DNA of 64,000 nt from a bacterium (GTDB lineage: Bacteria; Verrucomicrobiota; Verrucomicrobiia; Limisphaerales; J093), in contig JAJXZJ010000059.1 in the NCBI GenBank assembly GCA_021780105.1, forward strand, positions 3,230-67,229. The letters are read 5' to 3'. Both the position numbers and the translations under genes were made by a program. This document shows, one piece after another, positions 2,341-61,016 of the stretch (the stretch's first letter is position 1; every line of letters starts with the position of its first letter). The notes under the pieces are model-generated. The model had not been told where the DNA came from and searched no databases. It worked only from the letters and a program-made list of their open reading frames with translations.

Positions 2341-3590
2341 TCCGTCACATTTTTTCCGAGGCCGTCGGCGCGCTGGCTCATTACCGGCTGCGCTCGGCGC
2401 TGACGATGTTGAGCATCGTCTGGGGCGTGGCGTCGCTGATGCTGCTGCTGGCTTACGGTCAGGGTTTTGAACACGCCCTCACCCGCGCGTTCCTGCAAAT
2501 CGGCAAGGACCTGGTGGTGGTGTTTCCCGGCCAAACCAGCCTGCAGGCCGGCGGCGAACGCTCCGGCCGGCGCATTCCACTCGAATTGAGCGACGTCAAG
2601 GCCATCCAGGACGGCGTGCCGACCGTCGAGGCGGTTTCGCCCGAAGTCCGGCGCTTCTGGCCATGCACGTTCAACGACCGCATCCGCAGCTACGGCGTGA
2701 GCGGCGTTTACGCCGGCTACGCGCGCATTCGCAACGCAGCGCTGGCCCGTGGCCGATACCTTTCGGAGGAGGACGTGCTGCACCGGCGGCGGGTGGTGGT
2801 CATCGGCGACAACCTCCGGAAAGAGTTGTTCAGCGGCCTGCCGGCGCTGGGCAGCGACATCAAAATCAACGGTGTCCGCTTCACCGTCATCGGCATCCTG
2901 GAAAAGAAAACCCAGATCAGCAACTACTCGACACCGGACGACATGACCGCCTTCGTGCCGTTCACGACGCTCGCGGGCATCACCGACGCCCGCTACCTCG
3001 ACGACATTGTCCTGCTGCCCGCCAGCAACCTGTTCCGGGACCGCATCACGGCGGACGTGCGGGCGGCGCTGGCCCGCGCCCACAATTTCAACGTCAACGA
3101 CACGCGCGCCGTGGAAATCATCGAATGGAGCAAATTCCTGGCGCTCGTGACCAGCTTGAGCCTGGGACTGAAAATCCTGCTGACGATCATCGGCACGCTC
3201 ACGTTGAGCATCGGGGCCGTGGGCGTGGTGAACATCATGCTCGTCTCCGTGGCGGAGCGAACGCGGGAGATCGGCGTGCTCCGGGCATTGGGGGCGCGGC
3301 GGAAACACGTCCTCCTGCAAATCCTGTTCGAGGGTTTGATCCTGACGCTGACCGGCGGCTTGCTGGGCTTCCTGCTGGCGGCCGTGCTGATCAAGGCGAT
3401 CGGCTCGCTGCCGTTTCTGGGACCGCTCTTTGAGGACACCTCCGGGCGCAGTGACATTCATCTGGCGGTGTCGTTGTCCGCGCTGGTGGTGTCGAGCACG
3501 ATTCTGACCGCGGTGGGTGTCATCGCAGGGATGATTCCCGCCATCCGGGCGGCGCGACTGGATCCGGTTCAGGCGATCCGGAGCGAATAG
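2337..3590 (+). CDS. ABC transporter permease, MacB/FtsX family (second copy)
   Basis: The ATG at 2337 overlaps the upstream TGA (ATGA). MIRHIFSEAVGALAHYRLRSALTMLSIVWGVASLMLLLAYG... then SVAERTREIGVLRALGA. Same architecture as the preceding gene. The listed ORF start at 1893 is an upstream shadow extension. Confidence 0.85.
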   Translation: MIRHIFSEAVGALAHYRLRSALTMLSIVWGVASLMLLLAYGQGFEHALTRAFLQIGKDLVVVFPGQTSLQAGGERSGRRIPLELSDVKAIQDGVPTVEAVSPEVRRFWPCTFNDRIRSYGVSGVYAGYARIRNAALARGRYLSEEDVLHRRRVVVIGDNLRKELFSGLPALGSDIKINGVRFTVIGILEKKTQISNYSTPDDMTAFVPFTTLAGITDARYLDDIVLLPASNLFRDRITADVRAALARAHNFNVNDTRAVEIIEWSKFLALVTSLSLGLKILLTIIGTLTLSIGAVGVVNIMLVSVAERTREIGVLRALGARRKHVLLQILFEGLILTLTGGLLGFLLAAVLIKAIGSLPFLGPLFEDTSGRSDIHLAVSLSALVVSSTILTAVGVIAGMIPAIRAARLDPVQAIRSE

Positions 3591-3604
3591 CTCCGCCCCA
3601 GACG

Positions 3605-3672
3605 CGTAGGACAGGCATCCTGCCAGTCTCTGAGTTCAGAATATTGGAGACAACCGGGATGGCTGTCCTACG
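3605..3672. repeat. REP-like long imperfect palindrome (GTAGGACAG core) just downstream of the permease operon
   Basis: cgtaggacaggcatcc (3605..3620) pairs with ggatggctgtcctacg (3657..3672) with one mismatch. An inner gtctc/gagac stem surrounds a 12-nt loop. The element starts 14 nt after the stop at 3590. Confidence 0.6.
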
Positions 3673-3767
3673 ATGAAGACATGCTTCAGGGTAGCGCGGC
3701 GGAGAGTTTGGGAAATAAGCGAATAAGTGCGGGAAACAGAGGACTGCGATAGGCGGTAAAAATCACA

Positions 3768-3798
3768 CCGTTAATCCGACGTTAACGGGTCGTTTTTT
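3768..3798 (+). terminator. Rho-independent terminator-like hairpin
   Basis: ccgttaa (3768..3774), a 7-nt loop, ttaacgg (3782..3788), then gtcgtttttt. Confidence 0.4.
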
Positions 3799-3903
3799 GG
3801 GGGGCAGATGGCGATCTGGCTGGCGGCGGCACGAGGCGCGGCGCGGCGGCGGGTTGGCGGCGGCGCGGCAACAACGGCGCGTGCGGAGCCAAGCGAAGCG
3901 GTT

Positions 3904-4125
3904 TCACATGATTTTCCCAGAACCGGCACCGGATGTCACTTCGGGAGTCTGGGGTTTCCGTCGGTGTGAATCACCGACAAGTTGCACGCGGATTTCGTTG
4001 CGCGCGATGCGCAATATCATCCCCCGCCAGCTCGGACGGCCAGAGTAGATCGCGTTGGTGGCGGCAGCCAGTTCCTCCAGTCGCTGCCAGTCTGACTCTT
4101 GAAGTTTCAGACTTTCGCGGCGCAT
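3904..4125 (-). CDS. Small hypothetical protein with a ribbon-helix-helix-like N-terminus
   Basis: ATG at 4125 with GGGGGA about 13 nt upstream. MRRESLKLQESDWQRLEELAAATNAIYSGRPSWRGMILRIARNEI fits a beta-alpha-alpha pattern. It overlaps the junk tail of the frameshifted methyltransferase frame. Confidence 0.35.
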   Translation of the reverse strand: MRRESLKLQESDWQRLEELAAATNAIYSGRPSWRGMILRIARNEIRVQLVGDSHRRKPQTPEVTSGAGSGKIM

Positions 4126-4893
4126 GGCGGGTGATAAATCCCCCAGTCATCGGAGGTGTCGGAGGTTGAGATTGGTTTCCTGATTCCAGGCTACGGTTGA
4201 GAAGGTCGATGGTGGCCGCGCGGTCGCGCTGGGCGGCCAGCAGATTGTTGCCTCTTGTTTCGGTCATCCCGCTAAAAAGAAAATCAACGAATAATCGGCC
4301 GCCATCAGCCAACGACCCGGCGAGCGCTCCGGCAATCTGGCATGGGTTCGGAGTGTGCTCCAACACGTCCAGGCAGGTGATGACATTGTATTTCGCTTCC
4401 AGTGGGGCGACTCCGCCAGGGGTGGTCTCGATGTAGTTTACCCGACCACCGAGCCTCCAGTGGACGAAATCCCAAGTTCGTCCCGGAACATCCACCACGG
4501 TTGCCCGGACATCCGGCCGGTGCCTATGACCCATTCGGTCAAGACCGCAGCGCCGCAACCGTATTCGAGCCGCGTCCCGTTTTTGGGAAGGTGACGCAAA
4601 AGATTAAACCAAGTCTGATTGCGACGCGACCAAGGCAGGCGGGCCACGTAAAAATCCAAAGTCAGGTATAGCCGCTGCGTTTCGCAATCGTCGAGCTGAC
4701 CGCCCGCCAGACGGTTCCATTCGTCGTAAAACGCCTTCTTTCCAGACGCGGCGATCCGCACGGTGTCTTCGACACTCCAGCCGAGGAATTCAGCGGATTT
4801 CCGGACCGCGTTCCGCTGGCGGCGCGCGTTATCCGTGAGCCGAAGGAGTGAAACGGCTAGCACGTCACGAGGCATCATCCAGCCATATTGCAC
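3971..4893 (-). pseudogene. Class I SAM-dependent methyltransferase, frameshifted
   Basis: The N-terminal part, with motif I (RLEYGCGAAVLTEWVIG), lies in ORF 4438..4893. The continuation (HRPDVRATVVDVPGRTWDF...YNVITCLDVLEHTPNP...DGGRLFV) lies in ORF 3971..4558. The frame switch is at about 4514..4530. The fold ends near 4178, but the frame stays open to 3971. Confidence 0.6.
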
Positions 4894-4986
4894 TTTCCGT
4901 GGGCACTGGCCGCTTGGGCAAGTTTCATTTTCATTTTTCCTTCCGTAGGTTTCCCTGCTTTTGGTTGGTTTTCAGATGTGAATAAC

Positions 4987-5029
4987 AAAGGCAGGCAAGA
5001 AGGAACCGGTTTCCTGAATTCCTGCCTTT
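4987..5029 (-). terminator. Hairpin downstream of the 46-codon ORF
   Basis: aaaggcagg (4987..4995) pairs with cctgccttt (5021..5029), with a nested aggaa/ttcct stem. It lies 17 nt after the stop at 5046. On the minus strand it is followed by GTTATT. Confidence 0.4.
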
Positions 5030-5045
5030 CTCATGGGTTGAGGGT

Positions 5046-5186
5046 TCACGGTTGCTCGCCGGCGGCGGCCACGACGGCGAATTGCTGGGCGCCGAGGCTC
5101 TCGGCCGGGAAGTCGGCGGCATGGGTTTCGCCGAAAGTTTTGATGCGTTTGAGGGCGTCCATTTCCGAACTTTCCAGGTGTGTCAT
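5046..5186 (-). CDS. Small hypothetical protein (46 aa)
   Basis: ATG at 5186 preceded by AAGGA about 8 nt upstream. MTHLESSEMDALKRIKTFGETHAADFPAESLGAQQFAVVAAAGEQP. A hairpin lies just downstream. No family recognised. Confidence 0.4.
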   Translation of the reverse strand: MTHLESSEMDALKRIKTFGETHAADFPAESLGAQQFAVVAAAGEQP

Positions 5187-5278
5187 GGTCGTTTCCTTTG
5201 GTGGCTGCGTCGGAAGAAGGCTTACCGCAGGGTCAGCGGAGGTGTAAATGAATTTTTGATGTTTCGACGGGGATTCGT

Positions 5279-5396
5279 GGATTACCGCTGAGGCGCAGAG
5301 ACGCTGAGGAAAGAGGAACCACGGGTTGTCTGCCAATGGCGCTGCAATGATTCGGCCCCAGTAAATCTCCGCGTCTCCGCATCTCCGCGGTCATCC
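5279..5396. repeat. Pair of inverted REP-like elements (CCGC-GAG-GC-GAGACGC-GAG type)
   Basis: ggattaccgctgaggcgcagagacgctgagg (5279..5309) compared with the reverse complement of aatctccgcgtctccgcatctccgcggtcatcc (5364..5396) gives about 25/31 identical by hand alignment. It lies between the MFS stop and the small ORF. Confidence 0.45.
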
Positions 5397-5502
5397 TCAT
5401 TATCCGCCCGGATTGGCAGTTGCGTCGCACGGAGCAGTATTTCGTCCGCACGGAGGGGCCAAACGGCCGCACGGACTGGCTTCATCGGATTTCGGCGCGG
5501 GG

Positions 5503-6819
5503 TCAACGCCGTCGGCGGGGCGTGGTGGCGCGGACGATTTCTTCGCCGCCCTCCAGAATTTCCTCGCCCACCTCGGTCAGGGCGCGGGCCTGCCGACGCA
5601 AGGAACGCAGGGACTGCCGCGTCAGGCCGAGCAAACCGCGTGGCGTGAGGAAATACTCCGCCACCGTGCCCATCATGAGCAGCGGGTTGAACGAGCGCAT
5701 GGTGCGCATCGTGCGCCAGACTTCCTCCGCCGGCCGCGTAGGAACGAGGCCGACCATAAGGTTGAACTGGGAGAGTTGGAAGCCGGCGGTGGTGGCGCCG
5801 ACGACAAAATAGTTCACGTAAAGATGCTGGTGCCAGCGTGGGCCGGCCAACGCCCATGACAGCATGCCAGCCAGCGCCCAGAGCACCGCGCAGACGTGCA
5901 GCACCGGCTTGCTGCCGAAGCGGTCGCACAGCCGGCCCCAGCCCTTGAGCGTGGCCAGGCCGCCGATGCTGGCCACGGTGGTCAGCTTCACCACGTCCAC
6001 CACCTTGAAATGCAGCCCGTCCAGCAGATACATCGTGTAAAACGGCATCCCCACGTTCAGCAGCAGGCCCCACACGGCAATGAAGGCCACCAGCCAGAGG
6101 TAGTTGTGGTCGCGGAACACGGCGAGGAAATCCTCCCATCGCAGCGGATTCGTCTGCCGCTCGGTGACGACCGGTGGAAATTTCATCCGCGTGAGGAAGA
6201 GCAGGCCGATCAAGCGCGCCATGCCGGCAGCCGCAAAAATCCAGCCAAAGGTCAGCAGTGGATCATGACCGACGTCCGCGATCACGCCTGCCGCCAGGAT
6301 CACAATCAGCGTCCAGAAACCGAACACGAGGTTGCGGCGGCCAAAATATTTGCCGCTGATGCGGTGGGGCACGACTTCGGCGATGGCGGCGGACCACGCC
6401 ACGCTCGTGACGCTGTTCGCCAGCGTCGCCAGGCCCAGCAGCAGCGCGAACACCACGTTCCGCGATGGACCGAGCCAGTCCAGCCAGGGGACCAGGCCCC
6501 ACGGCAGCGCGCTCAGGACGAAGCCCAGGCACATGGTTTGGTAGAGGGAAAACCGGCGTTGCAGCCAGCGCGTGAGCGGCGGTTGCAGGAAATTGCACCA
6601 GTGCGGCAGCGCCGCCATCAAGCCGATCGCCCACGGGTCCCAGCCCAAGGCCACCACCGCAAAGGCGATCGCGAACGGCAGGTTCGGCATCGTGAGGTTG
6701 AGCATGGGCACGCTGAAGCACGCCTCGATGGTCGAATACTTCAACGAGAGCAACAGGTCGCGCCGGCGCAGGCGGCCGTCGGGCGGCCCTGTTGGCAACG
6801 GCACTGGCATGGGTGTCAA
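5503..6819 (-). CDS. MFS transporter
   Basis: 438 aa with about 12 hydrophobic helices in two halves. Typical MFS loop motifs are present (GKYFGRRNLVFG, LCDRFGSKPVL). Confidence 0.85.
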   Translation of the reverse strand: MTPMPVPLPTGPPDGRLRRRDLLLSLKYSTIEACFSVPMLNLTMPNLPFAIAFAVVALGWDPWAIGLMAALPHWCNFLQPPLTRWLQRRFSLYQTMCLGFVLSALPWGLVPWLDWLGPSRNVVFALLLGLATLANSVTSVAWSAAIAEVVPHRISGKYFGRRNLVFGFWTLIVILAAGVIADVGHDPLLTFGWIFAAAGMARLIGLLFLTRMKFPPVVTERQTNPLRWEDFLAVFRDHNYLWLVAFIAVWGLLLNVGMPFYTMYLLDGLHFKVVDVVKLTTVASIGGLATLKGWGRLCDRFGSKPVLHVCAVLWALAGMLSWALAGPRWHQHLYVNYFVVGATTAGFQLSQFNLMVGLVPTRPAEEVWRTMRTMRSFNPLLMMGTVAEYFLTPRGLLGLTRQSLRSLRRQARALTEVGEEILEGGEEIVRATTPRRRR

Positions 6820-8723: not shown

Positions 8724-9761
8724 CTACGCCGTCAGGTGCGCAAGAAAGCCGAGCCGCTGCCGCAGCGTCAGTTCGCGGCCCAGCGCGATGCGGCGCCAGT
8801 TGAGTTTAAGGATTTGCGCGTTGCCGAAAGCCCAGCGCCAGCGCTGTTTTTTGAGGCTTTCCAGGTCGTGCGGCATGACGCCCTGGCCGATGGTTTCATT
8901 CACATACACGGAGCGGTAGCCCTGAACGCTCAGCCGGAAGCCGAGGTCGGCGTCCTCCGTGATCGTGCTCGGGTCAAACCCACCCACGGCCTTCAGCGCG
9001 GCCACGTTGATCAGGCTCAACGTGCCCGTGGACGGCACGCAGTCGAGCGTGTTGGCCATGGTCATGTAGCCGGAGAAATAGTGTTTGAAGTCCAGGGCGA
9101 TGCCCAGATTGCCGGGGCCGATGTTCCGGTAATCCTGAGGAAACTGGACGAGGCCGATCTTCGGGTCGGCGAAATAGCGCAGCCCGCGGCGCAGCGCGTT
9201 GCGCCGCACGGTGTAGTCGGCGTCCACCACGAAGATGTATTCGGCCTGGGGATTCATGAACTGTGCGTGTTGCGCTGGATCAACTGGGCGTCCCACGAAG
9301 ATGTATTCGGCCTGGGGATTCATGAACTGGCGCACGTAATTGAGCGCGCCCGCCTTGAAGCCCGCGAGCTGCTCGACGTGAAAAAAGCGGAACCGCGGTC
9401 CCAGTTTCTCACAGCAGGCCTCGACCGGATGCCAAATCGCTTCATCGGCGGTATCGTTGTCAATGACCAGCACCTCGTAATTTCGCCAGTGCAGTTGAGC
9501 CAGACTCTCCAGCGTCTGACGCAGCAGTTCTGGCGGTTCATTGCAGGCCGGAACATGGATGGAAACAAACGGCTCCTTGGCGAACGCCTTGCGGCGGGCC
9601 AGATGGACGCGCGGGATGCAGGAGGTGACCAGTTGCAAGCCCAGCACGAAGAAATGGACCGCGAAATTGACCGCCAGCAACGCGGCATGGACCATTGGAA
9701 AAAGCAGCAGCAAGGCCGCGGAGCCTGCCACGCCAAAACAGATTGTCAGTTTTTTCAGCAT
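8724..9761 (-). pseudogene. Processive GT2 glycosyltransferase, catalytic part. Carries a 66-bp in-frame insertion and ends at an in-frame TAG
   Basis: ATG at 9761 (MLKKLTICFGVAGSAALLLL). VSIHVPACNEPPELL, VLVIDNDT, VVDADY (DxD), TEDADLG and QRWRWAFG (QxxRW) are all present. The duplicated segment is FMNPQAEYIFV. TAG at 8724..8726. Confidence 0.75.
9228..9329. repeat. Two identical 36-bp direct repeats separated by a 30-bp spacer, inside the GT2 coding sequence
   Basis: cacgaagatgtattcggcctggggattcatgaactg occurs at 9228..9263 and 9294..9329. The spacer tgcgtgttgcgctggatcaactgggcgtcc is at 9264..9293. The period is 66 bp, so it is in frame. Confidence 0.9.
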
Positions 9762-10013
9762 GATTGAGTTTGATTTTCCAGGCTGTCCACGGTGGCGGAA
9801 TCGCGGGACCGGCATTCCGGTGCCAGCAGCTTCCCGCATGAAGCAGAACAGCCAGTGTGACAACCCTAGGCTGATCATCCACGGCAGGCTATTGGGGTTA
9901 TCCCCTAAAAAACGGCGGTGCGGTGCCGCGTGCCATGATCGCCGAACCGCCGCTTTGCTCGGCCGGGCGCGGTGTGCTACAAAACGCGCGATTGACTGGA
10001 TCAAGCGAATGCC

Positions 10014-11090
10014 ATGACGAGTGACCCTTCCTCAGCCCAACCGCGCAAAGCGGCCCGGCGATTGCGCGGTCCCAGCTTGCGGGCGCTGCTGGCGGACATC
10101 GTCGAGTCTTCCGAGGACGCGATTTTCGGCCGAAGTCTTGACGGTGCCGTAAGCAGTTGGAACCGCGCGGCGGAACGCATATTCGGCTATTCCGCCGAGG
10201 AAATCATCGGCCGATCGAGCCATGTGCTCCTGCCGCCGGACCGACCTGAGGAAATCCGCCGGCTGATGGAACGCATCCGCCGCGGCGCGCGGGTGGAGCA
10301 TTTTGAGACGGTGCGACTGCGCAAGGACGGCGAGCGGCTGGCACTGTCCATGTCCGTCTCGCCCATCCGCAACGCGCGCGGCCGGATCGTGGGCGCCTCG
10401 ACCATCGCCCGGGACATCACCCGTGAACGCGCACTGGAGGCCCGCCTGCTGGAGGCCGGCGAGGAAGAACGCCAGCGCCTGGGCCGTGATTTACACGACG
10501 GCCTGGGCCAGCAGCTCGGCGGCATGGAACTGCTGTGCCGCACCTTGAGGCGCTCGTTGAGCAAGCGCAGCCTGCCGGAAGCCCGCACCGCGCGGTTGCT
10601 CGTATCGCAAATCCAGGCCGCCACGAGGCAGACCCGCGCGCTCGCCCGCGGCCTCACGCCCGTCATGGACCGGCCCAACGGCCTGATGCTGGCGCTGGAA
10701 GACTTTGCCACCACCACGCGCATTTTATTCCGGATCAACTGCACCTTTCATTGCGAGGAGCCGGTGTTGATTGCCGACCGCGGCGCTGCGATTCACTTGT
10801 TCCGCATCGCCCAAGAAGCCGTCAGCAACGCCATCCGCCACGGCCGTGCCCGCCGCGTGGACCTCAGCCTGCGACGCAAGGTGAAACATCTGACACTGGA
10901 AATCCGCGACCGCGGGCGCGGGCTGGCGGCGCCGGCACCCAATCCCACCGGCCTCGGGTTGCGGATCATGAAATACCGTGCCGCGATGTTGGGCGGCACG
11001 CTGCACCTGGCCGGCATCTCACCGCGTGGCGCGGTGGTCACCTGTAATGTTCCCCTCGCCCGCCTCAACGCCGTGGTTCCCCGCCTGTGA
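10014..11090 (+). CDS. PAS domain sensor histidine kinase (HisKA_3/NarX-type)
   Basis: PAS segment (SSEDAIFGRSLDGAVSSWNRAAERIFGYSAEEIIGRS). H-box ERQRLGRDLHDGLGQQL. HATPase motifs (EAVSNAIRHGRA, IRDRGRGL, GLGLRIM). Confidence 0.9.
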   Translation: MTSDPSSAQPRKAARRLRGPSLRALLADIVESSEDAIFGRSLDGAVSSWNRAAERIFGYSAEEIIGRSSHVLLPPDRPEEIRRLMERIRRGARVEHFETVRLRKDGERLALSMSVSPIRNARGRIVGASTIARDITRERALEARLLEAGEEERQRLGRDLHDGLGQQLGGMELLCRTLRRSLSKRSLPEARTARLLVSQIQAATRQTRALARGLTPVMDRPNGLMLALEDFATTTRILFRINCTFHCEEPVLIADRGAAIHLFRIAQEAVSNAIRHGRARRVDLSLRRKVKHLTLEIRDRGRGLAAPAPNPTGLGLRIMKYRAAMLGGTLHLAGISPRGAVVTCNVPLARLNAVVPRL

Positions 11091-11761
11091 AAACCACCGT
11101 CCATGCTGCCGGCGAGCGTCGCCGCGTGCTGATCGTGGACGACCATCCGCTGATGCGGCTGGGGCTGCGGCAATTTCTCACACAGGAGCCAGACCTCGCG
11201 GTCTGCGGCGAGGCGGCCAACGCCACCGAGGCGCTTGCGGCCGTCGAGCGCAGCCGGCCCGATCTGTTACTGCTGGACCTCTCGTTGACCGGGCGCAGCG
11301 GCCTGGACCTGCTCAAGGACCTGCGCGTCCGCTTCCCGCGGACGCCGGTGCTGGTGCATTCGGTGCATGACGAACTCATTTTCGCCGAGCGCGCGCTGCG
11401 GGCCGGCGCCCGGGGCTATTTGATGAAGCAGGAAAGTGGCAGCCAGCTCGTCGCCGCCGTGCGGCAGGTGTTGCGAGGGGAGATCTATCTCAGTGAACGT
11501 CTCCGCGCGCCGGCCGCGAAAACTGCCGGCCGCCGGCCGCCGGCAGGGCAGACGCCCATCGCGCGGTTGACCGCACGGGAATTCGAGGTGTTCCAGCTCA
11601 TCGGCCGGGGCAGCAACAACCAGGAGATTGCCCGCCAGTTGCACATCAGCATCAAGACCGTCGAGGCGCATCGCGAGCACATCAAGCGCAAGCTGAGCCT
11701 GGACAGCAGCACGGCGTTGAACCTGCTGGCGGTGCGCTGGGACAGCGACCAAACCGCCTAG
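11087..11761 (+). CDS. Response regulator, NarL/LuxR family
   Basis: GTG start overlaps the kinase TGA. Receiver domain (RVLIVDDHPLMRLGL...PDLLLLDLSL). C-terminal LuxR HTH (LTAREFEVFQLIGRGSNNQEIARQLHISIKTVEAHREHIKRKL). Confidence 0.9.
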   Translation: MKTTVHAAGERRRVLIVDDHPLMRLGLRQFLTQEPDLAVCGEAANATEALAAVERSRPDLLLLDLSLTGRSGLDLLKDLRVRFPRTPVLVHSVHDELIFAERALRAGARGYLMKQESGSQLVAAVRQVLRGEIYLSERLRAPAAKTAGRRPPAGQTPIARLTAREFEVFQLIGRGSNNQEIARQLHISIKTVEAHREHIKRKLSLDSSTALNLLAVRWDSDQTA

Positions 11762-12615: not shown

Positions 12616-15435
12616 GTGGCCGAAGCCCCTTCACCCGTGCCGCCGCCGTCGCCCGCCGGCGAGTCGTCGCTGGTCGTGCGCGTGCTTTCGTGGCTCACGG
12701 ACGCGGTGTGTGACCATCCGAAATGGTTCACCTGGCCGCAGGTGGGGTTGTTGGTCCTGTGCATCGTTTACACGGTGCGCAATCTACAGTTCGACATGGA
12801 CCGCAACAACCTGGTCGGTTCCAACCAGAAGTATCACCAGAACTACCTGCGCTACGAAAAAGAGTTCCAGGCGGACAACGATCTGGTGACGGTGGTGGAA
12901 AGCGAGAGCATCGAGAAGAACCGGCAGTTCGTCGAGCGGCTCGGACGCCGCATGGAAGACGAACCGAAGTTCTTCACGAATGTGTTCTACAAGGGCGACC
13001 TCAAGCTCATGGGGCCGAAGGCGCTGTTGCTGGAAACGAATGCGGCGGACCTCGCGGAGATGCTCCAACGGCTGGAGGAGGCCCGGCCGATGATCCAGAA
13101 CTTCTCCCAAGTCACCAATCTCGACTCGCTGTTCAGCATGGTGAAGCGCCAGTTTTTGCACGCCAGTGGCGATCTGGACACCAATACGGAGGCCACGCTC
13201 AAGGCCCTGCCGGTGCTGACGCGCATTCTCAATCAGGCCGCCGACGCGGTGCGGCGCCCCGGCATCCCGCCGTCGCCGGGCGTGGCCGCGTTGTTCGACA
13301 GCAGCGAGCAGGCTGAGGCCAGTCTTTACATCACGTTTGCCACGAACCGGATTTACCTGGTCACCGCGCAACCGGCGGGGCCTGACATTGCCGAGGAGGC
13401 GATTCACGAATTGCGGACGCTCATCGCGGACACCCAGGCCGAGGTGCCGGGGGTAAACGTGGGCGTCACCGGAGGACCGGTGATCGAGGTGGACGAAATG
13501 GCGCAGGTCAAGCGCGACTGCACGGTCGCCACAATCGTCTCGCTCATCTTGTCGGCCGGGTTGTTCATTTATGCCTACTCCGAGGTCTGGCGGCCGTTGA
13601 AGGCGGTGGTGTCGTTGATCTTCGGACTTGGTTACACGCTGGGCTTCGCCACCCTGGTCGTGGGCCATCTGAACCTGCTGACCGTCACGTTTCTGCCGAT
13701 TCTGATCGGTCTGGCCATTGACTTTGGCATCCACCTGGTGACGCGCTACGAGGAGGAACTGCACCGCGGCCGGACGCCGCGCGAGGCCATGCGCAAGGGC
13801 ATCGTCTTCACCGGCCAGGGTATTTTCACGGGCTGCTTCACCACGGCCGGCGCGTTTCTGGCGATGGGGCTGACGGATTTCCGCGGCATCAAGGAAATGG
13901 GCCTGATCAGCGGTGCCGGCCTGTTGATCTGCCTGGTGCCGATGATGACGTTGTTTCCGGTGCTGCTGCTGCGCGGGCGACAACCCGAGGCCGGCGAAGA
14001 AGATTTGGGGCAGGCGGAACGCCGGGCGCGCATTGAACGGCTGTGGCTGGACCGGCCGGGCTGGGTCACGGCGGTCACGCTCACCATCACGGCGCTGGCC
14101 TTGAGCCAGTTTCCCAAGGTCTATTTCGACTACAACCTGCTGAAATTGGAAACCAAGGGCCTGCAGGCGGTGAACTACGTGAACGTGCTCATGACGGCCG
14201 CCGACCGGTCCGTCCTGTTTGGCGCGGTGATCACGGACTCGCCGGAGAAGGCGGAGGCCCTCACGCAGAAGCTGCTGGCGCTGCCGTCGGTTGCCAGCGT
14301 GGACTCGATCGCCCATTACCTGACGGAGGACCAGAGCCAGAAGCTTGCGCTGATCCGCCAGATCAAGCAATCCCTGGCCGGCATCCACTTCGCCCCGGTG
14401 GATCTGAACCCGGTCAACGTGCGGGATTTACGACTGACCCTGCAGTATCTCCAGACTTACCTTACGCTGGGCAGCGAGGCGGCGGCGAAGGCGGGCGAAC
14501 AGAAGCTGGCGGAGCAACTCACCCATGTGCATGACGCCATCGCCCGGTTGCGGGTCGCGATGCAAAACGTTGATTCCTCCACGGCTGCCGAGAAGCTGGG
14601 TGAGTTTCAACGGGCGCTGCTGAACGATTTGCACGACACGCTGGCCGCCATTGCGGACCAGGATGCCAGCGCGGCGCTGCGGGTGAAGGATTTGCCGCCC
14701 ACGCTGCGCAACCGCTTCATCAGTCAGAACGGCAAGTTCTTCCTTTTGCAGGTCAATCCCAAGCGCGATGTCTGGGAACGCAAAAACCAGGAGGAGTTCG
14801 TTACCGAGTTGCGCTCGGTGGACCGCGATGTCACCGGCGAGCCGGTGCAACTGCTGGAATACACCACCCTGCTCAAGGACAGCTACATCCAGGCGGCGTG
14901 GTATTCCTTGGGAGCAATTGCGTTGTTGGTGTTCATTCACTTCCGCAGCATCCCTTGCGTCATCATGGCGCTGCTGCCGGTGCTGCTGGGAACCACCTGG
15001 CTCGTCGGCTGGATGGGACTGGCCGGCGTGCCGTTCAATCCAGCCAACATTATGACCCTGCCGCTGGTCATCGGCATTGGCGTCACCAACGGCATTCACA
15101 TTCTCAACCGCTTTGCCGAGGAGCAGAAGCCGAGCATTCTGGCCAAGAGCACGGGCAAGGCGGTGCTGGTCTCGGCCCTCGCCACGATGGCTGGTTTTGG
15201 CAGCCTCATCCCCGCCAAGCATCAGGGTATCGCCAGCCTCGGCATGGTCATGGCCGTCGGCACGGCCGCCTGCATGGCGGCAGGGCTGACGTTCCTGCCG
15301 ACACTGCTCGGCTGGTTGACCGCGCGGGGCTGGACCATGCCCAACAAAAAACCCAGAGGCGATAATGCACAACCGCCACTGGGTTCTGGAGGAACCAAGG
15401 CAAAACCACTCGTGATAATGCCTCTAAACGATTAG
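12616..15435 (+). CDS. MMPL/RND-superfamily exporter (HpnN-like architecture)
   Basis: 939 aa. Two 6-TM bundles, each following a large soluble loop. Sterol-sensing-like helices (LIFGLGYTLGFATLVVGHLNLLTVTFLPILIGLAIDFGIHL; VLLGTTWLVGWMGLAGVPFNPANIMTLPLVIGIGVTNGIH). Confidence 0.8.
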   Translation: MAEAPSPVPPPSPAGESSLVVRVLSWLTDAVCDHPKWFTWPQVGLLVLCIVYTVRNLQFDMDRNNLVGSNQKYHQNYLRYEKEFQADNDLVTVVESESIEKNRQFVERLGRRMEDEPKFFTNVFYKGDLKLMGPKALLLETNAADLAEMLQRLEEARPMIQNFSQVTNLDSLFSMVKRQFLHASGDLDTNTEATLKALPVLTRILNQAADAVRRPGIPPSPGVAALFDSSEQAEASLYITFATNRIYLVTAQPAGPDIAEEAIHELRTLIADTQAEVPGVNVGVTGGPVIEVDEMAQVKRDCTVATIVSLILSAGLFIYAYSEVWRPLKAVVSLIFGLGYTLGFATLVVGHLNLLTVTFLPILIGLAIDFGIHLVTRYEEELHRGRTPREAMRKGIVFTGQGIFTGCFTTAGAFLAMGLTDFRGIKEMGLISGAGLLICLVPMMTLFPVLLLRGRQPEAGEEDLGQAERRARIERLWLDRPGWVTAVTLTITALALSQFPKVYFDYNLLKLETKGLQAVNYVNVLMTAADRSVLFGAVITDSPEKAEALTQKLLALPSVASVDSIAHYLTEDQSQKLALIRQIKQSLAGIHFAPVDLNPVNVRDLRLTLQYLQTYLTLGSEAAAKAGEQKLAEQLTHVHDAIARLRVAMQNVDSSTAAEKLGEFQRALLNDLHDTLAAIADQDASAALRVKDLPPTLRNRFISQNGKFFLLQVNPKRDVWERKNQEEFVTELRSVDRDVTGEPVQLLEYTTLLKDSYIQAAWYSLGAIALLVFIHFRSIPCVIMALLPVLLGTTWLVGWMGLAGVPFNPANIMTLPLVIGIGVTNGIHILNRFAEEQKPSILAKSTGKAVLVSALATMAGFGSLIPAKHQGIASLGMVMAVGTAACMAAGLTFLPTLLGWLTARGWTMPNKKPRGDNAQPPLGSGGTKAKPLVIMPLND

Positions 15436-15534
15436 CCGGCGCCACTCCAAAAGTCAATCGCCAACCCCGAAAAATCCCGGAAAAAATCCAGAAACACGCC
15501 TGCCATCCGCGGTTGAATGACGGCCCACGGGCCG

Positions 15535-15562
15535 TTGACAGCCCGGCATTCGGCGCTAGCTT
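15535..15562 (+). promoter_or_regulatory. Candidate sigma70-type promoter for the uvrA-like gene (TTGACA-N16-TAGCTT)
   Basis: TTGACA at 15535..15540 and TAGCTT at 15557..15562. The start codon at 15572 is only 9 nt after the -10 element. The palindrome acggcccacgggccgt abuts the -35 element. Confidence 0.25.
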
Positions 15563-15571
15563 CGCTCCGCC

Positions 15572-18500
15572 ATGTCGAGTGCCAATCCACCCGCCGCCAT
15601 CCGCCTGCGCGGCGTCCGCCAGCACAACCTGAAGGGGGTTGACCTCGACCTGCCGCTGCACCGGCTGATTGTCGTCACCGGCCTCAGCGGTTCGGGGAAA
15701 AGCTCCCTGGCTTTCGACACGCTGTTCGCCGAGGGCCAGCGGCGCTACATCGAGACGTTTTCCCCCTACGCCCGCCAGTTCTTCGACCGGATGGACAAGC
15801 CGCGGGTGGACAGCATCGAGGGCATTCCGCCGGCCATCGCCATCGAGCAGCGCAACGCCGTCCGCACCACGCGCTCCACCGTCGGCACGATGACCGAACT
15901 GTGCGACTACCTGAAAACGCTCTGGCCGCAAATCGCCCGGCTCCACTGCCGCGGCTGCGGCCGGCCGGTGAAAAAGGAAACGCCGCGCGCGGTCTGGGAA
16001 ACGCTGGCCGCCGACGCACGGACGCATGGCGCCGAGGTGTTGCTCACGTTCGATCTGCCGTTGTCGGAAAAGCTCCCGCTGGCGGACTCGCTGGCGCTCA
16101 TCGCCCGGCAAGGCTATCAACGCCTGTTGCTCGGCGGGGAAATCGTGCGGGTGGAGGAGGCCGCCGATCCGTTGCAACGCCGCGCGGCCGCGTCCGCCGC
16201 GTTGACCGTTGTCCAGGACCGCCTGCGGTTGAGCGACGACCAGCGCGCCCGGTTCGCGGAAGCCTGCGAGCAGGCCTATCACTTCGGCAAAGGCAAACTG
16301 GCCGTGCGCGTCCTGAACCGGACCGGGGCGGCGCCAGCCGGGGCCGCGCCAGGCATCAGCGGATTGACCCTGTTGTTCAGCAACCGCCTTCACTGCGCCG
16401 GGTGCGACATCGAATACGCCGAGCCGACGCCGACGCTGTTCAGCTTCAACCACCCGCTGGGCGCCTGCCCGGCCTGCAAGGGCTTCGGCCGGATCATCAA
16501 CATTGACTACGACCTCGCTGTGCCGGATCGCTCGCTCACCCTGGCCGGCGGCGTGGTGAGGCCCTGGCGCAGCGGGTTCAGCGCCGAGTGCCAGGACGAT
16601 CTGATGAAGTTCTGCCGCGCGCGGGAGATTCCCACCGACGTCCCGTTCAATGAGCTGCCGCCGCGCCAGCAGGATTGGGTGCTCAACGGCGATCCCGGTT
16701 ACGGCAGCGACGAGGAGCACGAATGGCCGCGGGCCTGGTATGGCGTGAAAGGCTACTTCCGCTGGCTGGAATCGAAAGCTTACAAAATGCACGTCCGCGT
16801 GCTGCTTGCCCGCTACCGCAGCTACCAGACCTGCCCGGCCTGCGCCGGCCGCCGGCTCCAGCCCGACGCGTTGCTGTATTGCGTCCCGAATCCGCCGGCG
16901 GTGCCCAAGGAAACCAGCCTTGCGGGTCACGCCGCCGCCGCGCCCGACGCGCTGCCCGCGCTGACGCTGGCCGATTTCTACCAGCTCCCCATCCGCGACG
17001 CCCACCGCTTCGTGGAACGGCTGGCCGGCGAACAACGATTTTCGCCGGGCGATCCGCTGCGGTTCGTGCTGGACGAAATCCACGCCCGCCTTGGCTACCT
17101 GGTGGAAGTCGGCCTCGGCTACCTGACACTTGACCGCCCCACGCGCACGCTTTCCGGCGGCGAAACCGAGCGCGTCAACCTCACCACCTGCCTCGGCACG
17201 CGGCTCGTCAACACGCTCTTCGTACTCGACGAACCGAGTGTCGGCCTCCACCCGCGCGACACCGCCCGGCTGGTGCGCATCCTCGAACACCTCCGCGCCG
17301 CCGGCAACACCGTCGTCGTGGTCGAACACGAGGCCGCCGTCATGCGCGCCGCCGACCAGATCGTGGACCTCGGCCCCGGCCACGGCGAGACCGGTGGCCG
17401 GGTTGTCTTCCAAGGCAGCTTTGCGAATCTGCTGAAGTCGCCGGACTCGCTCACCGGCCAATACCTCGCCGGCCGCAAGCGAATTGAAATTCCGCCGCGC
17501 CGCCCGGTGGCAAAACTGAAATCCGAAATCCGAAACCCGAAACCCGGGAATGCTGACAAGGCCGCCGCCGTTCGGACCTCCGACCTCGGACTTCGCACTT
17601 CGGACTTGTCCTGGCTCACCCTCCGGCATGCCACCCGGCACAACCTCCGGGACCTGACCGTGCATTTTCCGCTCGGCCGTTTCATTTGCCTCACCGGCGT
17701 GAGCGGCTCCGGCAAGACGACGTTGGTCCGCGAGGTGTTGCTGCCCGCGCTGGAACAAGCCGTCAAATCGCCGGAGCCTGCTGACGATCCCGCCGGCGCC
17801 CGGACCGACAACGAAGGCCCGCCAGACGACGAGTCGGCGACGCCCTCGCCTTCGTCATCCGTCATGCTTGCGGGAGCGGAGCAACTCGGCGGCATGGTGC
17901 TCGTGGACCAGGCGCCGCTGGGCAAGACACCGCGCTCGAACCCGGCGGTTTACGTCGGCGCGTTTGACGATCTGCGCGAATTTTTCGCGCAAACCGAGGC
18001 CGCCCGCCAGCACGGGTTGAACGCCAGCGCCTTCAGTTTCAATTCGGCCCAGGGCCAGTGCGAGCGCTGCCGCGGCGCCGGCTTCGAGAAGATTGAAATG
18101 CAGTTTCTCAGCGACGTCTTCATCCGCTGTCCCGACTGCGGCGGCCGCCGCTACCGGCCGCACATTCTGGAAGTGAAGGTTGAGAGACGGAGTGAGTTGA
18201 TGGTTGATAGGCGCGTTGCCGCGCGACGCCGTCCACTATCAACCATCAACTCAAATTCAGCCTCAACCCTTTCTTGGTCCATCGCCGACCTGCTCGACGC
18301 CACGGTGGACGAGGTCATTGATTTCCTCGCCGGCTTTGCGGATTCCAGGCCGGCGGCCCGCGCGAGCGCCGCGTTGAAATTGTTGCAGGAAGTCGGCCTC
18401 GGCTATCTGCGCCTCGGCCAGCCGATCAACACGCTTTCCGGCGGCGAAAGCCAGCGGCTCAAACTCGCCCGCCACCTCGCGGAATCGGCCGCCGTTTCCG

Positions 18501-18799
18501 CCGCGCCGCCTGCCTCGCGCCGCACCTTGTTCCTCTTCGACGAGCCGACGACCGGCCTCCATTTCGAGGACATCCGCGTGCTGCTCCAGGCGTTTCAGCG
18601 GCTCGTGAACGCCGGCCATTCCGTGCTCGTGATCGAGCACAATCTGGAGGTCATCAAGTGCGCCGACTGGGTGATTGACCTCGGCCCCGACGCCGGCGAC
18701 GAAGGCGGGCGGATCGTGGCCACCGGCACGCCGGAGGACATCGCCGCCTGCCCGCAAAGCCACACCGGCCGCGCGTTGCGCGAGGTGGGCGTCGGCTGA
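15572..18799 (+). CDS. UvrA-family ABC ATPase (excinuclease subunit A paralogue type) with two inserted repeat-derived segments
   Basis: [52 protein letters not shown]. Zinc-finger Cys pairs. Two Walker A sites ([16 protein letters not shown]). Two signature/Walker B pairs ([34 protein letters not shown]). Confidence 0.88.
   Translation: [1075 protein letters not shown]
17519..17607. repeat. Intragenic inverted heptad-repeat element
   Basis: Arms at 17519..17548 and 17578..17607. Of 30 hand-paired positions, 20 are Watson-Crick and 7 more are G.U only on the antisense strand. Translated in frame as [29 protein letters not shown]. Confidence 0.6.
18178..18268. repeat. Intragenic REP/MITE-like palindromic element
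   Basis: An 18-bp perfect inverted repeat (18193..18210 / 18236..18253) around a 25-nt loop, plus an outer 7-bp stem (18178..18184 / 18262..18268). Translated in frame as [30 protein letters not shown]. Confidence 0.8.
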
Positions 18800-18803
18800 C
18801 GGG

Positions 18804-19958
18804 CTACCAGGCGCGTTGGAGGATTTCCTCCAGTTCCCCCGGCGTCAGCGGGAGCGGATTCGACTTCATGCTGCTGGCGCGAGCGGCCTTTTCGACCAGA
18901 CCGGGGAAATCTTCCGGGGTGAGGCCGTAGGCGCGCAGGCCGGGAATGCCGAGGTCGCGCGTCAACTCGCGCAACCACGCCGCGCCGTCGTTGGCCGTTG
19001 CCTGTGGCCGGTCCGTGAGCAGCCGTGCGATTTCATCGAGCCGGCGCCGCGCCGCGTGTTCCGGCTGCCGCGCAGTCAGCGCGCGTTGATTGACTTCCCA
19101 AACCGGCGCCAGCAAGGCCGCGCACACCGCGCCGTGCGGAGCGGGAAACATCCCGCCGATCGGCCCGGCGAAACCGTGGACCGCGCCCAGCCCGGCGTTG
19201 GCCAGCGCCAGCCCGCCGAACAGGCTCGCCACCGCCATCTCCTCGCGCGCCGCGGCATTCGCGCCGGCCGTGAACGCCTGGCGCAACGACCGCGCCACGC
19301 GCCGCAGGCCCTCCACGCACAGGGCGTCGGCGAGCGGGTTGGCGCGCGCGCAGAGGAACGGTTCGATGAGTTGCGTCAACGCGTCCATGCCGGTGGCGGC
19401 CGTCACGGCGGGCGGCAGGCCGTGCGTCAATTCCGGGTCCACCAGCGCCACGCGCGGCAGCATCAACGGGCTGCGCAGGCTCACTTTCACGCGGTGCAGC
19501 GGCGAGGCGAGCACGGCGTTGCGCGTCACCTCGGCGCCGGTGCCGGCGGTGGTCGGGATCGCGAGGCACGGCGCGGCCGGCCGGGTCAGCGGTTGCGCGC
19601 GGCCGATGACTTCGAGGTAATCCAGCAATTCGCCGTCGTTGGTCAGCAGCACGGCGATGGCCTTGGCCGCGTCCACCGCGCTGCCGCCGCCGAAACCGAT
19701 CACGCAGTCGCAGCGCCCCGCCTTGGCCAGCGTCGCCCCCGCAATGATCGCCTCCGTGGTCGGTTCGCCGGCCACGGGAAAAACCACATCGCTGACATGA
19801 TTTTCCCCGAGCAGGCGCCGCAGCGCTTCGGCGCGGGCCGGCGTGTGGCCGGTGACAACCAGCGCGCGACGGCCGAGCGAACGGGCGACCGGACCGGCCT
19901 CCTTCAGCGTGCCGGGACCGAAGACGATTCGCTGCGCGGTGGCGAACTCGAAGTGCAT
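18804..19958 (-). CDS. Iron-containing alcohol dehydrogenase
   Basis: 384 aa. CDCVIGFGGGSAVDAAKAIAVL, plus the His-rich metal site region (GLGAVHGFAGPIGGMFPAPHGAVCAALL). Confidence 0.9.
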   Translation of the reverse strand: MHFEFATAQRIVFGPGTLKEAGPVARSLGRRALVVTGHTPARAEALRRLLGENHVSDVVFPVAGEPTTEAIIAGATLAKAGRCDCVIGFGGGSAVDAAKAIAVLLTNDGELLDYLEVIGRAQPLTRPAAPCLAIPTTAGTGAEVTRNAVLASPLHRVKVSLRSPLMLPRVALVDPELTHGLPPAVTAATGMDALTQLIEPFLCARANPLADALCVEGLRRVARSLRQAFTAGANAAAREEMAVASLFGGLALANAGLGAVHGFAGPIGGMFPAPHGAVCAALLAPVWEVNQRALTARQPEHAARRRLDEIARLLTDRPQATANDGAAWLRELTRDLGIPGLRAYGLTPEDFPGLVEKAARASSMKSNPLPLTPGELEEILQRAW

Positions 19959-60900: not shown

Positions 60901-61016
60901 GAGATCTCGGTAGTGTCCTGTTTTACGGAATTTTAATGGTAGGGCGGCGCTGCTGCGCTGCCAGGCCGAGCAGCCGCCCGGCCCTACCCTCGAAAACAGG
61001 ACACTGTCCAGATCTC
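60901..61016. repeat. ~116-nt compound palindrome (GGTAGGGCGG core) in the tetR / beta-helix intergenic region
   Basis: Nested stems: gagatct/agatctc (60901..60907 / 61010..61016), agtgtcctgtttt/aaaacaggacact (60912..60924 / 60993..61005), ggtagggc/gccctacc (60938..60945 / 60981..60988), gctgct/agcagc (60949..60954 / 60969..60974). Confidence 0.7.

Follow-up and report, generated by a model that had tools for sequence, protein, structure and literature searches.

A palindrome of inverted heptanucleotide repeats translated in frame within a verrucomicrobial UvrA-family gene

How does a long, strongly folding palindrome come to lie inside the reading frame of a conserved DNA-repair gene, and what is it doing there? 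The question is raised by a stretch of 64,000 nucleotides from a bacterium of the Limisphaerales (Verrucomicrobiota; contig JAJXZJ010000059.1; hereafter the window), in which a gene for a UvrA-family excinuclease subunit contains a 91-nt hairpin-forming element that is translated as part of the protein. A sequence-only reading of the window had proposed that a hairpin resembling a repetitive extragenic palindrome (REP) or a miniature inverted-repeat transposable element (MITE) had landed in the gene without breaking the frame, and had likened it to the Rickettsia palindromic elements (RPEs). Our analysis bears out part of this proposal, the in-frame insertion and the RPE comparison included, and changes other parts. 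We consider it probable that the element is a passenger, translated and tolerated by the protein, at a hot spot where such insertions recur.

The element is a simple-sequence palindrome, in which two short, inverted GTTGAKR arrays surround a non-conserved GC-rich loop (Table 1). Re-reading the sequence reproduced exactly the coordinates, arm sequences, loops and stems first described for it, with inner arms that pair at 18 of 18 positions as a perfect inverted repeat and with ends that read GGTTGAG and CTCAACC. Its units have a period of seven, GTTGAGA in the outer stem and GTTGATG-GTTGATA-G in the inner arm, which makes it a tandem heptanucleotide repeat in composition, though Tandem Repeats Finder (TRF) calls no array in the arms because each holds fewer than three units. 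Folding both strands of 18170-18275 as RNA gives a strong hairpin on each, at -53.6 kcal/mol on the plus strand (z = -8.0, with none of 200 shuffles as stable) and -51.6 kcal/mol on the minus strand (z = -7.8). It is the strongest hairpin of the 64 kb, and a sequence-agnostic hairpin scan of the window found nothing comparable. The 18-mer arm, for which 0.02 chance occurrences are expected in the window, is present only as the two arms, and no further copy appears in the window when up to three mismatches are allowed. Rfam at its gathering threshold places no family at the element, its sole match in the window being a tRNA, and the arm has no match among viral contigs. A terminator scan reports no terminator-like site at the element, and the sequences that follow the inner stem (AAATTCAGCC) and the outer stem (CTTTCTTGG) have no directly adjoining U tract of the kind that marks an intrinsic terminator.

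The surrounding gene encodes a UvrA-type protein in which Pfam recognizes UvrA_inter, UvrA_DNA-bind and ABC_tran, UvrA chains in the PDB match at E = 1e-94, and no variation is seen at the Walker, signature and Cys positions among 42 family members; its named best matches come from metagenome-assembled genomes (MAGs) of Verrucomicrobia or Limisphaerales. Across the element, stop codons interrupt two of the three frames on either strand, and uvrA reads the open one, in agreement with the translation quoted earlier, which is exact and in frame with the host open reading frame (ORF). When the canonical linker is taken as the span between the motifs C..C.G.R[YF]...L and I..VL.MT, it measures 8 residues in 53 of 53 canonical UvrA genes among the matches listed, which represent many phyla, and 37 residues in the host, bearing out the earlier statement that canonical UvrA has only a few residues at this position. 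Alignment with homologues delimits the insert (Table 1), which adds 29 residues, close to the 30 or so anticipated, without a stop and with the flanking UvrA motifs intact, at the turn of the beta-hairpin next after the C-terminal zinc module. In an AlphaFold2 model based on the family alignment, residues 874-898 lack secondary structure and have a predicted local distance difference test score (pLDDT) below 50, whereas the elements on either side are well predicted. The encoded 29-residue segment is predicted from this to be a disordered surface loop. Translational bypassing of the T4 gene 60 or mitochondrial byp type was rejected, the inserts of about 45 homologues being all in frame and stop-free, and it is also disfavored by the use of the single open frame in the window insert.

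Table 1. Positions of the palindromic element, its parts, the host gene and a second insert in the window.
Feature	Position	Strand	Basis or remark
UvrA-family excinuclease subunit (host), 1075 aa, both ATPase halves and zinc-module cysteines intact	15572..18799	+	ORF, translation, Pfam, PDB
Palindromic element, whole, 91 nt	18178..18268	+	translated as VERRSELMVDRRVAARRRPLSTINSNSAST
Outer left stem GGTTGAG, first GTTGAKR unit	18178..18184	+	
Internal loops, 8 nt per side	18185-18192 and 18254-18261	+	
Inner left arm TGAGTTGATGGTTGATAG, about 2.5 units of GTTGAT[GA], stops in 2/3 frames	18193..18210	+	
Apical loop, 25 nt, 21/25 G or C (84%)	18211..18235	+	unalignable between lineages
Inner right arm CTATCAACCATCAACTCA	18236..18253	+	18/18 identical to L042 arm
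Outer right stem CTCAACC, 7 bp with left stem	18262..18268	+	
Protein-level insertion, 32 residues facing 3 (757-759) of T. maritima UvrA (PDB 3PIH)	18182..18277	+	phmmer split alignment
Second in-frame insert, left array (GAAAYCC) x 4.1, encodes KSEIRNPKP	17518..17546	+	TRF, own scan, alignment
Second in-frame insert, right array (TTCGGAC) x 5.3, inverted relative to left array	17571..17607	+	TRF

The insert is neither an artefact nor private to this genome. The exact host protein is encoded on four contigs, the gene sequence in assemblies ERZ27236874 and ERZ27236853 is identical to that of the window, and an orthologue from JGI with 93% nucleotide identity (locus L003) bears the element with six substitutions of its own. 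The identical gene in independent ENA assemblies and the diverged L003 copy rule out an assembly artefact, and since L003 has the element too, it is not a recent, private landing. Four of the six L003 substitutions change an amino acid, which indicates weak constraint on the peptide, and one breaks a stem pair. Another explanation is that the segment is an ancestral, functional protein linker of this UvrA lineage in which the palindrome is incidental. Such a linker would account for the segment being shared with L003, for positionally homologous inserts in several lineages, and for the presence of some insert at this site in most family members, but we regard it as extremely improbable, for different subgroups, and even sister genes, have unrelated peptides, most of the L003 substitutions (four of six) alter the amino acid, the segment is predicted to be disordered, conservation between lineages lies at the nucleotide level and includes rare codons, and some members have the short linker only.

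The family set comprises about 45 members of 999-1201 aa that are 65-76% identical, and DNA was compared at the insertion site in 14 family members and relatives, including L042. Across the 45 or so members the length at this site varies, some having a short linker and others up to about 60 extra residues, and the sequences belong to a few unrelated types. Hairpins with (GTCGAGR)n/(CTCGAC)n arms occupy it in L142 and L148 (z = -7.5 and -5.1), a hairpin with GTTGATA arms in L042 (z = -4.3 / -5.4), a partly decayed GTTGAGR hairpin in L143, and in L144 a hairpin that forms on the minus strand only, through G.U pairs, while L062, L065, L145, L146 and L147 have tandem arrays without a hairpin, made of 7-nt units or, in L065, of 14-nt units. 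At least four clean heptamer units stand at homologous positions in L142, L148 and L144. The type of insert is discordant with the protein tree, and L143 and L150, whose genes are 87% identical, have unrelated palindromes between the same boundaries, after GARGTSAARGT and before ATGGTCCATC. The palindrome in L150 runs from GTAG to CTAC and folds at -58.8 kcal/mol (z = -5.9), and several further loops differ between the two genes. The site is a recurrent, permissive hot spot at which close relatives carry different elements, and positionally homologous hairpins occur at it in several other lineages. A frameshift was considered for family member P0036, which aligns with only 82% coverage, and was rejected, since its apparent truncation is explained by a 97-aa insertion.

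Seven of the inserts are collinear in the alignment, and the outer helix is retained in six of the seven lineages. In this seven-insert alignment 88% of the cells are paired, and at eight pairs (16 cells) both partners have been substituted. The covariation score is 0.28, compared with 0.15 in shuffles (0 of 500 reach 0.28) and at most 0.08 with slid partners. As we read it, the alignment also shows a 3-nt TGA/TCA indel mirrored in the two arms. Between the window and L042 the third codon positions of the flanks are about 52% identical and the loop cannot be aligned, in genes that share the right arm at every position (Table 1). A nucleic-acid structure under selection, whether in the mRNA, in an antisense RNA or in the DNA, and acting as an inter-domain ribosome pause, as an RNase III or decay determinant, or as a regulator of uvrA, would explain why palindromic symmetry persists across lineages while the sequence changes, and why the arms of the window and L042 are conserved around a free loop despite near-saturated synonymous sites; both inserts of the host gene (the second is described below) lie at domain boundaries, and in several copies the minus strand, with its G.U pairs, is the better paired. 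We nevertheless give this explanation little credence. No hairpin (z of about 0) forms in L062, L063, L065, L145-L147 or L149, almost no insert is present in P0018, P0027, P0083 and P0088, and canonical UvrAs do without a hairpin insert altogether. In the L003 copy, moreover, the outer stem and one inner pair are already gone, and the window element has neither a terminator-like tail nor an Rfam match.

Similar hairpins occur well beyond uvrA. A genome collection that holds one genome per species, and from which the source genome of the window is absent, was scanned with the 18-mer arm as query, and this returned 58 single-arm matches, many of them in Verrucomicrobiota. Several of the Verrucomicrobiota matches share the layout of the window element, with an outer stem, an internal loop, an inner stem and a GC-rich loop of about 25 nt. 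The hairpins of L012, L022/L041 and L028 lie about 3-25 nt from ORF ends, that of L049 lies in an intergenic gap, and that of L018 just upstream of the start of a CTP-synthase-like ORF. Two copies, one intergenic (L022) and one at the uvrA site of the window element (L042), are found in MAG GFS_6609, and L142 has a second hairpin, made of the same unit as its uvrA hairpin, 43 nt after the uvrA stop, which is missing in its relative L148. The proposal of a REP/MITE-like hairpin stands in part: two-stem hairpins with the same arm are found between genes in other Verrucomicrobiota, one of them in a MAG that also has the uvrA copy, whereas the attribution to REPs or to MITEs fails on the features considered below. 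Outside Verrucomicrobiota, the GTTGATR unit makes up long tandem arrays and long hairpins in Cyanobacteria, Bacteroidota and an epsilonproteobacterium (L004, L007, L013, L015, L017, L029, L037 and L040). In the G/T-rich orientation of such an array TGA and TAG stops rotate through all frames, and the C/A-rich orientation is open in all three. C/A-rich heptamer arrays of the CTATCAAC type are in frame in L020 (1018-aa ORF; PLSTINYQPSTH) and in L006 (331-aa ORF; INHQLSTINST), and in-frame capture is therefore not confined to uvrA.

REPs are GTAG- or CGTC-tagged units of 20-40 bp with a stem of 6-9 bp (up to 13), present in high copy and often accompanied by a RAYT gene (PMC3733652). The window element has no GTAG and has CGTC only inside its apical loop; at 91 nt, with stems of 18 and 7 bp rather than 6-13 bp, it exceeds the short REP unit, and its arms are inverted tandem heptanucleotides and not a REP monomer or dimer, a dimer being excluded because neither arm is self-complementary. 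The element is accordingly no classical REP. It does have terminal inverted repeats (7 bp outer, 18 bp inner), as a MITE has, though any palindrome has these trivially, and like the bacterial MITEs that insert in frame (ERIC, Correia, cyanobacterial; PMC10969869) it is a small, non-autonomous inverted repeat able to create in-frame fusions. Unlike them, it has no target-site duplication, no relation to the terminal repeats of insertion sequences and no evidence of transposition: its flanks, ...GAAGTGAAG and CTTTCTTGG, share no direct repeat, and no duplication is present at the L143/L150 boundaries (after AARGT, before ATGGTCC). Lacking a target-site duplication, the element falls outside the definition of a MITE.

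The comparison with RPEs is more apt, in that the insertion is in frame, keeps the ORF open and yields a predicted loop. In the account of Ogata et al. (2000) that is relayed in PMC10969869 and PMC3733652, RPEs are likewise in-frame palindromes of about 100 nt that lie in housekeeping genes, keep the ORF and give a predicted surface peptide. As that account describes them, the comparison here being one of descriptions, RPEs form multi-copy Rickettsia families with a conserved consensus and conserved peptides, whereas the window element has arms of simple repeats and a non-conserved loop. It occurs once in the 64 kb, and several copies are present in related genomes. The closer precedent is the set of REPs inside uvrA of Opitutus terrae (PMC3733652). 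Di Nocera, De Gregorio and Rocco (2013, BMC Genomics 14:522; PMC3733652) described GTAG/CGTC REPs inside DNA-repair genes, argued that this location is unlikely to be fortuitous, noted different REPs at about one site in recB homologues, and offered the speculation that such inserts, when they lie in repair genes, promote mutator states. In O. terrae the uvrA REPs encode residues 638-644 and 1601-1623 of Oter_2709 and residues 224-239 and 440-462 of Oter_3168 (PMC3733652), and the window gene is like these in having in-frame palindromes in a verrucomicrobial uvrA, with two inserts per gene of roughly 7-30 residues each. The insert at residues 638-644 of Oter_2709 falls near the residue numbers of the second insert of the window gene, a likeness by numbering between unaligned proteins, and a GTAG...CTAC palindrome of the O. 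terrae kind occupies the very site of the window element in L150.

In its make-up, the element resembles the heptanucleotide simple sequence repeats (SSRs), such as the short tandemly repeated repetitive sequences of cyanobacteria (STRR; TAACTGA, PMC4679880) and GGGAATC of Xanthomonas (PMC4692102), with which it shares the period of 7, stops in one orientation and inverted arrays able to form stem-loops. Those arrays are mostly intergenic and near gene ends, with inverted arrangements included in the case of Xanthomonas GGGAATC (PMC4679880, PMC4692102). They are described as intergenic direct repeats, however, whereas the window copy lies inside an ORF, as two short inverted arrays translated within a conserved protein, and the arrays are concentrated in one gene family, that of uvrA-like genes. 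According to Mrazek (2007), as cited in PMC4679880 and PMC4692102, heptanucleotides are the most abundant class of long SSR in prokaryotes and are ascribed to polymerase slippage, which is one reason for considering an origin in situ, with 7-nt slippage in a tolerant loop followed by an inverted duplication or template switching that copies the arm, so that the hot spot would reflect local mutational dynamics. Such an origin agrees with arms made of 7-nt units and with plain arrays at the same place in relatives, with the mirroring of the 3-nt indel and of many substitutions in both arms, with the arms of L144, which are each internally homogenised yet mutually mismatched (GCCGA versus TCAAC units), and with the lack of a target-site duplication. 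It fits poorly with the wholly unrelated palindromes that L143 and L150 carry between the same boundaries, with the same arm and architecture at unrelated intergenic loci, twice in one MAG, and with the same-unit hairpin past the end of the L142 gene that L148 lacks, and in-frame growth of a 7-nt unit needs steps of three units. Of the rival explanations an origin in situ is the most credible, though it is unlikely.

The host gene has a second in-frame insert (17509-17607) in the linker between the two ATPase halves, encoding KSEIRNPKP...RTSDLGLRTSDL, and its two inverted arrays are the sole period-7 arrays of the whole window in our own scan, TRF calling the same two. The arrays pair mostly by A.C on the sense strand, which corresponds to G.U on the minus strand, where the insert folds at -47.6 kcal/mol, though with a z of only -1.7, and in the AlphaFold2 model residues 651-677 have a pLDDT below 50. 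Many relatives retain PKSEIRNPK...SDFGFRTSD at this second site, and the peptides RQDAGST and RDRRDACPT found there in some relatives resemble translated GTAG-type REP units. Elsewhere in the host gene there is a 15-nt tandem duplication (CCGGGGCCGCGCCAG x 2) at 16323-16352, which corresponds to a low-confidence loop at residues 251-260, and further inserts of low pLDDT lie at residues 444-460 and 733-762.

Of the period-7 arrays at 16 family loci, 18 fall in 60 kb of uvrA-like genes and 4 in 146 kb of flanks (binomial p = 5e-7; about 10-fold), and essentially no arrays with periods of 5, 6 or 8-11 were found in the same loci. The UvrA loci of other phyla have no such excess, their genes having 4 arrays in 238 kb and the DNA outside them 16 in 420 kb. 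Among the non-verrucomicrobial loci, L118, L134, L092, L091, L133 and L074 have heptamer arrays within about 220 nt up- or downstream of a canonical uvrA, and four canonical uvrA genes have an internal heptamer array, which in two of them (L111 and L120) is near the inter-half linker. A contingency locus has also been considered, at which the gain or loss of one 7-nt unit would shift the frame and reversibly switch nucleotide excision repair off, giving rise for a time to mutator or hyper-recombination subpopulations. In its favor, the enriched period is indivisible by 3 and no other period from 5 to 11 is enriched, up to 4-5 perfect units are found in relatives, as are 4.1 and 5.3 units at 17518-17607 in the window, and the proposal agrees with the mutator speculation of Di Nocera et al. 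(PMC3733652). We nonetheless find it very unlikely, because the arms at 18193-18253 hold only about 2.5 units, all recovered assemblies are in frame and identical, and no frameshifted allele was seen among the recovered sequences, P0036 being a case of insertion. Known phase-variable tracts are longer and more perfect than these 7-nt tracts, which also counts against a contingency locus.

The reading that we favor, of a tolerated passenger in an insertion hot spot, would run as follows. Hairpins of the GTTGAKR type are scattered through the genomes of Verrucomicrobiota, often a few to 25 nt from an ORF end, and one copy may have reached the uvrA gene from another genomic copy, or have been converted by it. 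Only in-frame events in dispensable loops would have survived, and the window copy fits this, being read in the single stop-free frame and lying in what appears to be such a loop, at the beta-hairpin turn described above. Its translation would yield the predicted disordered surface loop of 29 residues, which UvrA seems to tolerate, and the element would be a passenger with at most minor effects on the mRNA or the protein. In related genes the same few nucleotides are taken by other heptamer hairpins, plain heptamer arrays or GTAG...CTAC REP-like palindromes.

Four considerations weigh against this reading. The window, which was the stretch searched for copies, contains the element only once. 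Neither a target-site duplication nor a transposase nor a tagged end was found to point to a mechanism of transposition. The identity of the window and L042 arms at 18 of 18 positions, together with the covariation of the arms, fits selection on the hairpin itself equally well. Finally, heptamer arrays are concentrated in this gene family above the density of nearby intergenic DNA, and tolerance alone does not explain this.

Some further features of the window and of the family were seen in passing. An intergenic palindrome at 3605-3672, CGTAGGACAGGCATCCTG...CGGGATGGCTGTCCTACG, has 26-nt arms that are 81% complementary, starts with GTAG and ends with CTAC, and resembles the GTAG-tagged REPs described by Di Nocera et al. 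An inverted repeat at 60901-61016, apparently intergenic, has 24-nt arms (88% complementary) that are 68 nt apart, and an AT-richer one at 4982-5034, within the non-coding region 3457-5503, has 24-nt arms (75% complementary) around a 5-nt spacer. Upstream of uvrA, about 80-110 nt from its start, lies an A-rich imperfect repeat (CCCGAAAAAT-like, 2-3 copies) at 15465-15494; no LexA box of the assumed form TGTTC-N4-GAACA was found near the gene, and no sigma-70-like promoter was called in 15300-19100. With regard to architecture, family members occur as a single gene, as in the window, or are fused to a second UvrA of canonical type, as in the 2140-aa ORF of L042 (100-6519) and in many database proteins of 1820-1880 aa, and L142 has a second uvrA-like gene (9561-11333) about 2 kb downstream; L063 is listed with L042 and L142 among the loci that illustrate these architectures.

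In-frame palindromes of this kind are cases in which selfish or simple-sequence DNA has made conserved proteins longer but has not destroyed them. The present case contributes three aspects. The inserted palindrome is made of heptanucleotide repeats, a class so far described mainly as intergenic; one turn of UvrA serves as a landing pad on which unrelated hairpins are exchanged within 13% nucleotide divergence; and period-7 arrays are concentrated about ten-fold in this repair gene relative to neighboring DNA. The preference of palindromic repeats for excision- and recombination-repair genes that Di Nocera et al. pointed out has, to our knowledge, never been explained. A bolder interpretation, which we hold to be rather unlikely, is that the permissive loops of this verrucomicrobial UvrA family are, beyond being tolerant, an active, recurrent sink for hairpin-forming heptamer arrays and REP-like palindromes that replace one another between close relatives, which would point to a mechanistic link between the dynamics of palindromes or SSRs and the excision-repair gene itself. 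If that were so, reversible frameshifting of uvrA by plus or minus 7 nt would make the gene a contingency mutator locus, or breaks induced by palindromes would be repaired from ectopic copies, so that a repair gene would record its own history of damage. The gene family offers a dense set of comparable events in which tolerance, targeting and selection for switchable repair can be set against one another, and the concentration and turnover of period-7 arrays within it are the part of these observations most worth pursuing.

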